From contig CM059431.1 in assembly GCA_030390025.1 (NCBI GenBank), positions 145,950,001 to 146,014,000 on the forward strand: a stretch of 64,000 nt of DNA. The letters are read 5' to 3'. This DNA is from Squalus acanthias. Its lineage: Eukaryota. The position numbers were made by a program, and so were the translations under genes. Below, piece after piece: positions 8,019 through 13,256 of the stretch. Every line of letters begins with the position of its first letter. Positions within the stretch are counted from its first letter, which is position 1. The notes beneath the pieces were generated by a model. It searched no databases. It had not been told where the DNA came from and saw only the letters and a program-made list of their open reading frames with translations.

Positions 8019-10285
8019 CCTGGCCGTCCGGAGACGGGCGGCGAATGTACAGAGTTATAATTTTAGGTGTTTTACACTTTTGGTAGTTTTAAGATTTTAA
8101 GAATTCTAGTTTTAAGGATTTTAGTAAGTAAGTTTTAAAGTTCTCAAGAATCGATCACCCGTCAAGCCAGAGAACCTTCTCGGGACATGGCTGTCTGTTT
8201 TGTGTGTCCCCACAGAGAGGAAATCGGCTTGACAAGGGTTCTGCTCCTGCTCGCCCTGGTAGGGGTGAGCATCGGTGACCGAGGTGACGTGGAGGACTCC
8301 CACATCTATGGGTACTCGGGAGAGAGAGCACCAGTCGTCACTGCAGGGGGTGGCGAGCGGGGAGTGGAGGAGCTCGCCATCTACTTCCACGAGGGAAGGT
8401 GGCCAGGGTGGCTGGGGTCCAACTCTACTAAATACTCCAACCAGCCCGGGTTCACGTACGGGGAGGCCTCCCTCCCATGCCCCAGGGTACAGGTCGTTGC
8501 CACAAGGGTCAGTGTCACCAAGGGGAAATGTGTGTGCCTTACCTGCAAGGGACGAATTCCCCTGAATAGGTGGTGGTGGCTCAGGAAGCTAAGCAGGGAC
8601 GCAGGGGACCATAAAGCCGACTGGGAACGACTAGGGAACGACACCTACCGGACAATCACAGGGACCCATGGGGGAGTGAGTGTGTGTTGGGATAGGTGGT
8701 TGGAGTCGGAACAGGGAGTCTATGTCTGCATGTGGGCATCAGAGAAAGCCTGCCCCACAGGCATATCCATCATCTTCTCCAGACAATGGCAAGATGCTGG
8801 GGAGGGGATGGGGTGAGATTCTAGCCTACATGTGTGCGCGCTCCCACACACCCCTACCCCAGTCAACACCACCGAACTCGTGGCACGCCCCCGAAAGCCC
8901 CTGCCCACGACCACGACCTCACGGACAGTAGTAGAGAGTTGTCCTACCACCACCAGGGGACCAGAGAATGGGTTAGTCCTAGTGCCAACCGAAAAGGTAC
9001 TATACCAGGGGGTACACTATGCAGCAGCTTCAGTAATATTAAACCTTACCGAGGTATACTTACCTAAATGGTGTCCTAAGGAGACAGAACAGCTATACCA
9101 GGCCCTGCTAAAGGAAATGTTTAGAAAATTACATGAATTCGACTTTGCCAACGTGGACAAAGCAGAACTGTACGGATTACACCCTGAGCGCACCATGGGC
9201 ACAGGGAGACAAAGAAGGGGGACCTGGAACGATATTTTCACTACCTACAAAACAGAATCCTCAGTAATAAATAGCCTGGATGACATAGAGCTACAAACAC
9301 AGATAAATGGTTTAAAAACCCAGTTAAGAAAGATCCTAACGGACAGGAACACAGTGGTGGGCTCAGAGCTACACGAGGACCAAGCTATGACGGTCCATCT
9401 ACAAGAGATTATTGCTGAGCTAGTGAGACATGCTAAAACAGTGAATGCACTCATACGGGAGGACAGGAATGCTTCGGATCAGGCTGCATAGAATGAGGTG
9501 TGTGTGCTATACGGGGCATGGTTGCTGGGCGAGGGCCGCAGCAACCTGGAGGATTTAAAACAAGGTTTAGTCCCCTCCTGGATTAGCAACAAACACCTCG
9601 CAGCCCTCCACCTGTTCAGCAATTCGCTGAGCCCGTGTCAGCTCCGTCTAGCCTCTGAAGCCTACCCAGTCCCAGTAGATTGTGGACGTTCCAATCACTC
9701 TATCATGGGGATAGTAGTAAGATGGCCGGTCATGGGTGGGACAGCCCGACCCGCACCGGTATACAGGGTGGAGAACATTGGGATCATTCAAGGAGGTGTA
9801 CATGTCCGTTTTGCAGCGGTCCCACCTTATGTGATAAAGTGGGAGCACGCTATGAGAGGTACTGACCTCTCTGTGTGCCGGAGCCGGGGTTCACACATAA
9901 TACTGTGTCCCCAGCACTTGAACGCCTATCCTAAACCACAGTGTGGGTTTAAAGCTGCTGGCGCTCGACCTATCAACTGTACCATGGAGTAGGCCATGTT
10001 CCCCCACAGGTAGCATTCATCGGGGGTGGGACATATTGTGTCACCACAAGGGCGCCCCACTACCAGCATGGACAGCATTTTTGGTGTCCGGTAAGTGACA
10101 GCAGCTTCTGCTTTAAACCTGAGGCAGAAGTTCAAGTGGCCCAGGAATGGATTGTCCCCATTCCTGAACCCTCAACCGTTCATCTCACTGTAAGGGAAAA
10201 CATTACCAACCTGCAAAACTATGTCACCTTCTTCGGCTATAAAATTCCCCCTCTGCCTGAACACCTTATCGTCTTACTTAAAGCT

Positions 10286-10577
10286 ATGATGTGGAGATGC
10301 CGGTGTTGGACTGGGGTGGACAAATGTGAGAAGTTGCACAACACCAGGTTATAGTCCAACAGCTTTATTTGAAATCACAAGCTTTCGAAGCGCTGCTCCT
10401 TCGTCATAAAGGGCAGTTGGAAAGATTAACTGTAGTCACCTGGCAGTGTTCTCTGACTATATATGCTGTGCCTATATGCATCTTTTCACTTCACCTGACG
10501 AAGGAGCAGCGCTCCGAAAGCTTGTGATTTCAAATAAAGCTGTTGGACTATAACCTGGTGTTGTGCGACTTCTCACA
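10286..10577 (+). mobile_element. Short Penelope-like element (pLTR) insertion with an internal 84-bp inverted repeat
   Basis: 12-bp target duplication TTACTTAAAGCT (10274-10285 / 10578-10589). Inverted arms 10323-10406 and 10496-10579 differ at 2 positions. Contains a hammerhead core and AATAAA. Confidence 0.75.
10491..10527 (+). ncRNA. Minimal type I hammerhead ribozyme motif
   Basis: Helix I TCAC/GTGA, core CTGACGA plus an extra A, helix II GGAGC/GCTCC, GAAA, palindromic AAGCTT, putative cleavage triplet CUU. Confidence 0.65.
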
Positions 10578-10666
10578 TTACTTAAAGCTGTACAGGTATC
10601 ACAAAAGCATTTCTACACCCTAGAACAAAAGACACTCGAGATAGGGGCTGAGATTTCGGCCATCAC

Positions 10667-12471
10667 TGTAGGCTTTGCAAAATCCCCCAGAAACTCAAAC
10701 AGAACCCTAAAGGGGGTGATTTTTGGATTTTTATACGAATTTGGAATGATGCGACCTAAATGAAGGAATTTGATGTCAGAACCTCCGTTTTGGTCATTTT
10801 TAAGGATCAGGGAAGGAAAACCCTGAGGAAAAAGACTTTTGGATGATAAGACACCTTTTAAAAGGGCCATTGGGAAAACCTGCAGTCACAGAAACTCCAC
10901 AGGCTGCAGGAAAGGGTGTGGTGAGGCAGTGGACAGCTTTCGGTTATTGGGACCCAGCCAAGCTGTCAGGGAGATGTTTGCACTGCAATCCAACCAGGGA
11001 GGAAGAGCCTCACCCAAAACCTCAGATACACATCCAAAAATGAATAATCCAAGACCCCTTTTGAAATCCCCAGGCCCACACAGGATGCTAGAAGCCTGAA
11101 AACAATAAAACATCCAGTACACCCATCAACCCATCAAAAACCAATCAGCCAAGCATCTACAGGGACAGATTAACAAGCCCGCCAAAAACCTAAGACAAAA
11201 GGGGCGAGATTTGGCGCGTATGTAAAGGCCCTGCCTAAATGGGAGACATCGAAAGCCATCAGGACAATTTAACACCAAGTTAAATCATCAAAACTTAACG
11301 AGCCCACCAAAACCTAAGACAATGGAATGAACAGGCCTCAACTGAAACCTAAATCACTTCAACACAAAACCGATTTAGTAAAGCGATTTTGTCGCGAAAA
11401 ATACAATGGGCCTGAATGGAATAATTGAGGGGCTATTCCCCCAGCAAACACAGCAAGTTAATCACCGCTACAGAGGGCCACACGACACGAGCAGGAGGAC
11501 AGAGAAGCAGCTAAGCCACGAGGCAGGCAGACCCGAGGCGCGATCGGAGGCAGGGACAGACAAGGCCAGGCAAGGGCTAGAACTGAGACCACGAGCTGGG
11601 AGCGAGTCGGCATCGCTGAACATACGCTCCAGCTCTAGTAGGTACTAGCCAAGGCCACTGGAAGCTGGGAGCGAGTCAGCATCACTCAACCCACAGTCCA
11701 GCTCCAGGAGGTACCGCCCCGACAGGCCTCCAATGCAACAAACCAGCTACAAGAGCCGGCAAGGGCTCCACGAGGTGAACCGACACTCGAAAGTACCGCG
11801 GAAACCAAGGCCCCGCGCAGCAACCAACCACCAGGCAACCATGACCAAGAACCAGACCAACACCAGAAAAAACCGAGGACACGCAAGTTTCCACACTACA
11901 AACTATTCCTGACTTACCCCTGGGTAAGATTTTCCGTTAAAAAACTCTAAACCCTACCTCGAAGGGAGAAAAATTGGGTACTTACCTGATAAAGTCCAAT
12001 ACGCACCTTACCGCGTCTGCGGACAAACCCAAACTGACCTGGAGTGCAGCTGGAGTCTTCCACCACGTCCGGGGTACGGCAGGTCCCAACAATCAAAAAC
12101 CGCAGTGAACCCCGAAATCACAAAATATCTCAACTGTCAAGAACTGTCATTGGTGAGCATTATCCCTGATCCTTTGGAATTGAAACCTAGCTAGACAGTG
12201 GGATTGGGAGGGATAAGGGTTTTTGTATATTGCCAATCTCCCTCGCCTGTACCGTGTGTTCCCCAACCTGTGTTTAGGCATTAAGTGTGTTTTAAGTTTG
12301 TTACCTTTTTCTTTTAATAAAGTCAAAATTCTTTCATCAGAGCCTGTTGTCTGCTGCATCTTTGTTCACAACACCCAAATAAGTCCAAGGTCTAGAACCA
12401 GGGACGTGGGAGCGATTCGAACCGCTCACTGAGTCAGAGGTGAGGCTGGCCCTACTACACCACCCCCTACA
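10667..12471 (+). mobile_element. Solo LTR (LTR-A, 1805 bp) nested in env of ERV1
   Basis: TGTAGG...CCTACA termini, 4-bp TSD TCAC (10663-10666 / 12472-12475), AATAAA at 12316. The 3' half is clearly homologous to the LTR at 13268-14902. Confidence 0.93.
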
Positions 12472-12520
12472 TCACGGTTCCACCCTGGTGGGACATTTTT
12501 GAGAATATAGAGGTTCCTTC

Positions 12521-12813
12521 AGACAATTTCCTCGAAGTAAAGGGAATTAAGGGTTACGGGGAGCGGGCAGGAATTTGAACATGAGTCTAGGTTCGGATCG
12601 GTCATCACCCTGTGGGTAGCGGAGCGGGCCCAGGGGCCGTGTAGCCTGATCCTGCTCCTATTTTGTGTGTCCAATTCTGTTAGGTTCAGGAAATGGTTCT
12701 GTGATAGTAGATTGGCGGTTAGGATCAGATCAGCCATGATCTTATTGAATGGCGGAGCAGGCTCGAGGGGCCAATTGACTTACTCCTGCTCCTATTTCTT
12801 ATGTTCTTATGTT
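12521..12813 (+). mobile_element. 5'-truncated CR1-type LINE 3' end (or CR1-tailed SINE) inserted in env
   Basis: KGIKGYGERAG* ORF2-like end, GGAGCAGG...CCTGCTCC stem-loop, TTCTTATG tandem tail; flanked by CTTC on both sides; the env frame is restored on removal. Confidence 0.8.
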
Positions 12814-13256
12814 CTTCCTGGATTAGGATGGCCTCCCACATCTTAGTGGCTTGCCAGCTCGGGATAGTCTTGCACTTACTGTGTACAAAGTGCAAGGGGA
12901 AGGACATAATGCTCCATTCCCGGCATGAGAAAGCCTGGGAGAAACATTACAATAAAGTTTACCAAGCATAAAACAAGCCTGAATCGATTCTAAAAATAAA
13001 GAAGTTTTGTGATCTTGTGTTATTTTCTTTCTATGTATGTATTTTGTTTTTTTTCCAAGTGGCACAGGGGTGTTGGACCCCCTCCGTGCTTGGATGTGTA
13101 TGTATTATTGATTCTTACCTGTATGTATTTGAATACTACACCAAAAAGTGGAATGTATGTTTTGGGGTTTTAGTTTAGGTAATACAGGGGAAGGTTGGCT
13201 TTCGAGGATCAGGAACTTTGTCCACCCAGGACGATACTATAGTGACTTAAAGTATC

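Follow-up and report, generated by a model that had tools for sequence, protein, structure and literature searches.

An endogenous retrovirus of the shark Squalus acanthias with a probable paramyxovirus-F-type Env

Whether retroviral env was gained once or several times is an open question. One analysis preferred independent gains, as it saw no detectable similarity between canonical and Loki Envs and took the two to be unrelated (PMC9040795). An F-like Env has nevertheless been published for the lokiretroviruses (lokiorterviruses) by Wang and Han, with a signal peptide, an RxKR/RxRR cleavage site, heptad repeats and a transmembrane (TM) segment; their screen of the host class concerned here gave no positive among three genomes (PMC7947760). 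A second published link between retroviral Env and F is the foamy virus Env, a class Ib fusogen in which a receptor-binding module is integrated with the shared F core (PMC11468914). In cartilaginous fishes, syncytin-like Env genes kept in shark genomes have been reported from a screen that required ISD and CX6-7C motifs (bioRxiv 10.64898/2026.05.06.723177).

Here we describe an env locus in a 64,000-nt stretch of the Squalus acanthias genome (hereinafter the window). It belongs to a chondrichthyan endogenous retrovirus present in many copies; this env copy is dead and unable to make a full Env. Judged from predicted structures, the Env is very probably a class Ib fusogen of the paramyxovirus F type that carries its own head at the N terminus, joined to a Pol that belongs with canonical retroviruses of a class III/SnRV-like grade. 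The features of the element are as follows.

3839–8018, + strand: decayed pro-pol (protease, RT, tether, RNase H, integrase), from ORFs and Pfam matches to RVT_1, RT_RNaseH, RNase_H and rve
8187–8276, + strand: Env start and signal peptide, from translation (15-residue hydropathy 2.38 at 8223)
8277–8813, + strand: N-terminal head, a putative attachment domain; probable Ig-like domain at about 8487–8741
8814–8816, + strand: premature stop 1, copy-specific (absent from the compared contigs in 4 of 4 runs)
8817–8954, + strand: Thr/Pro-rich stalk, low pLDDT
8955–9218, + strand: F2-equivalent segment with a helix, long beta strands and conserved Cys, up to and including the furin site RQRR (9207–9218)
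9219–9560, + strand: fusion-peptide region and first heptad repeat; copy-specific premature stop 2 at 9489–9491
9561–10285, + strand: Cys-rich, mainly beta region, putative counterpart of F domains III/I/II; frameshift near 9990
10286–10589, no strand assigned: insertion 1, a high-copy short repeat flanked by a 12-nt direct repeat and having inverted arms of 84 nt
10590–10666, + strand: main part of the second heptad repeat
10667–12475, + strand: insertion 2, a solo LTR of a related family (TGT...ACA, 10667–12471) and a short target duplication
12476–12520, + strand: membrane-proximal segment with PPWWDIF
12521–12817, no strand assigned: insertion 3, a very high-copy repeat fragment, from contig depth and loose ends
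12818–12971, + strand: TM helix (about 12828–12884; best 19-residue hydropathy 1.88 at 12828), short tail and stop
13257–14902, + strand: polypurine tract (13257–13267) and 3' LTR (13268–14902, TGT...ACA)

The env gene starts at about 8187; its lesions are two stops, a frameshift and three insertions. A preliminary description of the DNA had placed an F-like fusion module at 8832–12971, to be rebuilt across the three insertions, and all of its motifs lie on the + strand where it put them: the Thr/Pro stalk, GLVLVPTEKVLY..ASVILNL, RQRR, the first heptad and the Cys-rich beta region read as described, and the second heptad, PPWWDIF and the TM segment with its tail were recovered as separate pieces. 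Its span captures the fusion half of the gene but misses the N-terminal 210 codons, the start lying about 645 nt further upstream. The pieces are collinear with natural relatives. In tblastn searches, the relative P0098 matches at 9228–9989, 9992–10288, 10566–10664 and 12747–12956, the relative P0007 additionally at 12471–12521, and homology to P0007 and P0008 is unbroken from 8244–8259 onward. Since such uninterrupted relatives exist, rebuilding the gene is unnecessary to show the F link.

The three insertions are real and consist of two high-copy repeats and one solo LTR. Summed contig depth at insertions 1 and 3 is mostly far above that of the flanking env bins in all four runs, and loose contig ends accumulate at 12521 and 12816, the borders of insertion 3, for which no clear target duplication was found and which may resemble a shark SINE/LINE in its 3' tail. 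Rfam returned nothing on insertion 1 except a hairpin match far below cut-off. The solo LTR of insertion 2 shares 74.5% identity with the 3' LTR of the element itself, and its empty site (joint 10660 to 12470) is present in contigs from two of the four runs (X2 and X7).

The family order, namely signal peptide, F2, furin site, fusion peptide, HRA, long Cys-rich beta region, HRB and TM, matches that of class Ib fusogens. The segment after RQRR, whose polarity had been attributed to possible decay, has a mean hydropathy of –0.30, compared with 0.05 to 1.09 in relatives, and is the most polar in a set of 17 scored family members; the polarity is thus part decay and part family trait.

The decayed pro-pol region has three in-frame stops, a YVVD motif at the RT catalytic site and 75% nucleotide identity to a second, related element, and neither a 5' LTR nor gag was found upstream of it. 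A tRNA search found none. The LTR ends TGT...ACA, a class III trait (PMC8278194), are present, and an in-frame gag-pol stop was found in the second element; neither feature is exclusive to the SnRV clade or clade Huo.

We modelled the window's env translation with X at the stops. Foldseek gave 63 matches at E≤0.001, the best being hPIV3 F (E 1.5e-7), and among the matches listed 44 of 44 were paramyxovirus or pneumovirus F, at only 8–16% identity and with whole-chain TM-scores, by target, of at most 0.39. The ten best VIA matches all come from F proteins or the foamy Env: NDV F reaches Z 9.7 (213 residues aligned, rmsd 4.2) and foamy Env 8rm0 Z 7.8, against Z 7.0 for the first unrelated row. 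P0083, a natural full-length relative, gives the F-type answer in fold searches too; the mean pLDDT values of the two models, 55 and 52, are of middling confidence. Structural similarity to class I F, chosen beforehand as the deciding test, is thus present, and the F layout proposed earlier in place of a gammaretroviral TM layout is upheld by these searches and by a motif check in which six of six proteins lacked CX6CC and ISD. The Env is predicted to share domain order and fold with paramyxovirus and pneumovirus F (PF00523), but differs in its low identity and in giving no Pfam Fusion_gly match in any family protein scanned or in the window's env pieces; it also has a putative attachment head of its own and a less hydrophobic fusion peptide than paramyxovirus F. 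In a PDB sequence-profile search hPIV3 F came only after syntaxin coiled coils, with E 0.18, and searching PDB with a single sequence produced one match, attributable to chance.

A head of Ig-like type probably sits upstream of the fusion module. Its Atlas neighbours are mostly Ig families (0.90–0.93; recognition 2223, below the tool's bar), VIA relates it to the Nav beta1 subunit and a TCR chain (Z 5.4–5.5), and the pLDDT over the domain is 42–67 in the window model. Pfam detects Ig_3 in the relative P0008 (E 0.0027) and has no match for the window's own head piece. These results hint at an Ig fold, which would be a V/I-set sandwich with a Cys-Trp-Cys core, and, more faintly, at a receptor role. 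Compared with foamy Env, which carries its RBD within the F scaffold and has two membrane segments, the shark Env has its head N-terminal to the whole F module.

At the profile level, the shark family aligns by hhalign with Loki-type Envs (E 1.3e-7 to 1.7e-6) and with SnRV-type Env (E 1.1e-5; best of 30 shuffles 0.035). Profile A2 also finds the WDSV-type Env (8.5e-7) and five of seven foamy-type Envs below 1e-3, matches that profile A4 does not give, and none of seven gamma-type Envs falls under 0.02. One new result is that a shark Env profile appears to detect loki-, snakehead, walleye and foamy Envs, not gamma-type Envs; the probable Ig-like head and the intact relative described below are new as well. 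Homology to the SnRV-type Env is collinear over about 280 columns, furin site and Cys positions included, and both proteins have a long N-terminal extension ahead of this core. The SnRV-type protein differs in its length (1134 aa), several furin-like sites and long tail, and homology between the N-terminal extensions is not demonstrable; an apparent motif likeness to the window's head (E 0.12) was rejected, as shuffles reach 0.059.

One reading, plausible though short of an even chance, is that the F-type Env is an old retroviral fusogen, possibly kept in the loki-, foamy, snakehead, walleye and shark lineages and replaced in gamma and beta types, with heads that would be exchangeable in the shark lineage. 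The shark lineage might instead have captured its env recently and independently, either from a Mononegavirus or through recombination with a lokiretrovirus. This origin is less likely, even though the top structural matches are paramyxovirus F and not foamy Env, the leading matches in a viral library include glycoproteins of negative-strand viruses, that of a fish filovirus among them, and class III ERVs undergo env swaps (PMC8278194). A recent capture accords poorly with an F identity of just 8–16%, with the collinear SnRV-type core and with the depth of the family within sharks, where identities range from 23 to 79%. Of 23 relatives matched, all 20 that are named are chondrichthyan. Viral contigs contained no env relative and the phage collection nothing; a profile search matched two of 8000 proteins scored, a count that has no bearing on the family's range.

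Could the element be a lokiretrovirus proper, the first of cartilaginous fishes, its Env being simply the published Loki Env? We regard this as very unlikely. The Pol does have a dual RNase H (tether plus RH, by Pfam), as lokiretroviruses do, a trait common to all retroviruses, and Loki-type Envs are the top sequence-profile matches outside sharks. With RT alone, AU tests reject no grouping (window+Loki 0.157, window+foamy 0.155, window+SnRV 0.09). On RT plus tether (428 columns), however, Loki and gypsy rows split from the rest (100/96) and window+Loki is rejected (p-AU 0.003), with two Loki-type rows sampled, both teleost-like. The RT motif is LPQG in the window versus PFG in the Loki rows read, amphibian and coelacanth Pols score far closer than Loki-type ones (418–441 versus 251–258 bits), and the Loki-type Env L003, at 568 aa, lacks the long N-terminal head, which in the shark Env adds about 200 residues besides a stalk. 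These data exclude the element from the lokiretroviruses and, as far as Pol sequence goes, place it among canonical retroviruses as class III/SnRV-like, to grade only. The window's RT lies outside a 100/100 foamy clade. It resembles snakehead retrovirus (clade Huo, PMC6001957; SnRV clade, PMC12193657) in RT motifs and groups with it at support 85 in a quick RT tree built without Loki or foamy rows and with five short RT rows dropped, but Pol identity is 31–32%, and the careful trees, built from 31 and 26 chosen rows after an earlier tree had excluded P0024 and ten near-duplicate loci, do not make SnRV its sister. That the F resemblance is generic to any protein of signal-furin-heptad-beta-heptad-TM order, the Env being an aberrant orthoretroviral type, is scarcely credible: coiled coils do occupy many lower rows of the PDB-profile, fold and VIA searches and TM-scores are low, but the F matches cover the beta-rich core (model residues 255–601 in VIA) and not merely helices, two independent models agree, and gamma-type Envs give no match.

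By analogy with homologous fusogens, the ancestral Env would have entered the ER via its signal peptide and been cut by furin at RQRR, with a conserved disulfide keeping the F2-like part joined to the F1-like part in a trimer held metastable. The Ig-like head on its Thr/Pro stalk may have bound the cell, in place of the paramyxoviruses' separate attachment protein, after which the first heptad would refold, insert the fusion peptide and zip with the second heptad.

One relative is intact. P0083, P0143 and P0144 (XP_072333160.1, XP_067889054.1 and GCC29952.1) are 739–754 aa long and 85–88% identical across three shark orders, without internal gaps in the two pairs compared; about 8 stops would be expected under neutrality and none is observed (P about 3e-4). 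Their fusion-peptide region has a hydropathy of 0.58–0.87 and 35–45% Gly+Ala, and the window's head has no significant similarity to this gene. On sequence grounds it is a candidate domesticated F-type env and may be a host gene; as part of the old-fusogen reading, it would have been domesticated in an ancestor of bullhead, carpet and ground sharks. The F-type family lacks the ISD and CX6-7C motifs demanded by the chondrichthyan syncytin screen, and the available main text of that preprint does not mention Heterodontus, Chiloscyllium, torazame or paramyxo (bioRxiv 10.64898/2026.05.06.723177). The literature searched described no F-type Env in a shark ERV, no F-type SnRV Env and no such conserved shark gene, on the last of which the preprint's supplementary candidate list may bear.

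As a provirus, the copy in the window is dead and unremarkable. Its family is a counter-example to the statement on canonical and Loki Env similarity in PMC9040795: here a shark retrovirus of canonical type has an Env profile that extends to the Envs of Loki, SnRV, WDSV and foamy viruses, which weakens the argument for independent gains and provides a bridge family when an Env tree is built. The relative that has stayed intact in three shark orders is a candidate for domestication, as a fusogen or as a gene that blocks entry, and is of a type overlooked by syncytin screens; if truly domesticated, it would be an F-type counterpart of the syncytins, invisible to motif-based screens.

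The preliminary description read the fusion half of the proviral env gene (8832..12971) as having the layout of a paramyxo- or pneumovirus F protein rather than a gammaretroviral one. Both the observation and the F-type reading are right overall, as judged by the motifs, the collinear relatives and the fold matches. We modeled the translation of 8187-9989 with X at both stops; the mean pLDDT is 55, with values mostly of 70-87 across residues 261-580 and a low stretch near the predicted furin site (RQRR, 9207-9218). Foldseek against the PDB gave 63 matches at E<=0.001, of which hPIV3 F is the best (E 1.5e-7), and all 44 matches listed are paramyxo-/pneumovirus F proteins. 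In an alignment-independent structure search, the first ten places all go to either F proteins or foamy Env, with NDV F scoring Z 9.7 (rmsd 4.2 across 213 residues) and foamy Env Z 7.8; the best-scoring unrelated chain has Z 7.0. Structural similarity to class I F is thus evident, with F proteins leading both searches. Fold searches with the full-length natural relative P0083 agree with the window model, and in a viral library the P0083 model further matches baculovirus F, a fish filovirus glycoprotein and walleye retrovirus Envs. The TM-scores of the window model to F are low, a sequence profile reaches hPIV3 F in the PDB only at E 0.18, and no Pfam match to PF00523 was found in any family protein scanned. 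The gamma-type ISD and CX6CC motifs are present in none of the six family proteins checked.

All previously listed Env motifs were found in their places. The three proposed insertions and the frameshift are borne out by natural relatives, which match the window Env as collinear pieces (33-76% identity) with gaps at 10286-10589, 10667-12475 and 12521-12817 and a frame change near 9990. The first insertion has inverted arms and a 12-nt flanking duplication; the second, a solo LTR, shares 74.5% identity with the LTR of the element itself, and two of the four sequencing runs examined include contigs that lack it; the third has sharp ends and repeat-level depth in the contigs, with no clear flanking duplication found. 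Both env stops are missing from the contigs examined in all four runs and are therefore lesions of the window copy, which is dead. The range from 8832 holds for the fusion module but not for the gene, whose true start lies near 8187; in the relatives P0007, P0008 and P0009, a signal peptide and ~180 more codons lead into the stalk without a break. The segment after RQRR, described as unusually polar, indeed ranks first in polarity among the 17 family members scored; its low hydrophobicity is partly common to close relatives, which are also just mildly hydrophobic.

The N-terminal head probably adopts an Ig fold, as predicted from models: residues 44-184 align to two Ig-domain chains (Z 5.4-5.5), P0008 (60% identical) has an Ig_3 match at E 0.0027, and the language-model neighbours are mostly Ig families, with a recognition score below the tool's bar. 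We infer a receptor role for this head. Beyond the anatomy and fold observed here, homology with F and foamy Env suggests that the ancestral Env would have entered the ER by its signal peptide, been cleaved by furin, kept F2 and F1 joined by a disulfide between two conserved Cys, formed a metastable trimer, attached through the head carried on the Thr/Pro stalk, and refolded its heptads into a six-helix bundle.

AG microsatellite makes up most of the window, which is animal genomic DNA. Its 5'-truncated provirus lies between 3.8 and 14.9 kb, and a second, related provirus begins near 58 kb. The first is organized as follows.

pro-pol, 5' of env: RT, tether, RNase H and integrase domains, with three in-frame stops
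env, then polypurine tract, then 3' LTR (13268-14902): downstream of pro-pol

A tandem array (1-3822, period ~48-49 nt) adjoins the protease gene at the expected gag/5' LTR place, and the pol tail (7452-8018) contains an internal duplicated motif (KVRDPQPAA, twice). A degenerate AG microsatellite of ~40 kb (14900-56600) begins directly at the 3' LTR end and includes a 500-N gap (37585-38084). Within the AG-repeat array, the minus strand carries two LTR-like copies of 1.67 kb (27715-29384 and 47446-49115) that are 98.8% identical and show 72% similarity to 56534-58108, upstream of the second provirus; they are either solo LTRs or pieces of a larger duplication. The second provirus (58087-64000) is 75% identical in pol nucleotides to the first and extends past the window end; its gag (627 codons) and pol frames are open, with one in-frame TGA between.

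Lokiretroviruses (Loki) have a published F-like Env, and the available part of that report finds them in none of the three chondrichthyan genomes of its screen (PMC7947760). The comparison set comprised three Loki-type loci picked by motif, a genome of 10,688 nt that matches snakehead retrovirus (SnRV) and 32 more loci, mostly retroviral genomes. The window RT carries LPQG, as in canonical retroviruses, and the Loki rows read carry PFG. RT alone splits Loki plus gypsy from the rest (92/93) and rejects none of the constraints uniting the window with Loki (0.157), SnRV (0.09) or foamy viruses (0.155); RT extended by the tether (428 columns; 26 rows, including two Loki-type rows, both teleost-like) supports the split at 100/96 and rejects window plus Loki (p 0.003), which speaks against a lokiretroviral identity. 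The nearest Pols include frog and coelacanth elements (~53% RT identity, grouping 90/91), and the trees give no support to SnRV as sister of this group. By RT motif and the longer alignment, the element is a canonical retrovirus that falls somewhere within the class III/SnRV-like grade.

A search among 1.84 billion representatives yielded 23 Env relatives, and all 20 with a source name come from sharks or skates, which points to a cartilaginous fish as host. P0081, P0087 and P0093 share the F core but have a different Cys-rich N-terminal domain, which suggests head exchange within the family. P0006 (Pristiophorus, a RefSeq-type model) fuses part of such an Env with a Niban-like host protein and may be a gene-model artefact.

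P0083 (Chiloscyllium punctatum), P0143 (Scyliorhinus torazame) and P0144 (Heterodontus francisci), from three orders that split long ago, are uninterrupted ORFs of 739-754 aa with 85-88% mutual identity and no internal gaps in two pairs checked. They are ~23-28% identical to the window Env, and conservation is 88-97% in the core and 55-62% in the tail. The signal peptide region, furin site, Gly/Ala-rich fusion peptide, heptads and TM are retained. No stops are seen versus ~8 expected under neutral drift, and ~46% of differences are conservative versus 28% expected under neutral change. These sequence comparisons indicate purifying selection, which could have been exerted on a circulating virus; we lean towards a candidate domesticated gene. 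A 2026 syncytin-like gene screen of 36 chondrichthyans required, in the available text, gamma-type motifs (bioRxiv 10.64898/2026.05.06.723177), and an intact shark relative would therefore escape it.

Two shark-family Env profiles were compared with 25 ORFs. Both Loki-type Envs match both profiles (E 1e-7 to 2e-6). The SnRV-type Env (L001:6131-9535) matches at E 1e-5 and 8e-5, compared with 0.035 for the best of 30 shuffles, 0.08 for Pol and 0.22 for Gag, and is collinear through the furin site and several Cys; its F-type core is homologous to the shark family, and its N-terminus has a faint V-set match (E 0.18). The Env of the walleye dermal sarcoma virus (WDSV)-type genome reaches E 8.5e-7 against one profile and E 0.007 against the second. 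In predicted fold, the Envs of walleye dermal sarcoma virus and walleye epidermal hyperplasia virus match the family at E ~1e-4. Walleye virus Envs thus match by fold and one of two profiles, whereas gamma-type Envs do not (0/7 below 0.02). Five of seven foamy-type Envs fall below 1e-3 with one profile and none with the other; five foamy accessory ORFs and two Xen-1-like genome ORFs score 0.1 or worse.

Independent env gains were argued, in the available part of PMC9040795, because canonical and Loki Envs lacked detectable similarity. Foamy Env structures, as far as the available part of PMC11468914 goes, and the shark Env profile matches together weaken that argument; independent capture or an env swap is a possible origin of the shark F-type Env. 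The principle of an F-type retroviral Env is already known; new here are the lineage and its N-terminal head, the link that it provides to the Envs of SnRV, WDSV and Loki, and the intact relative conserved among sharks.
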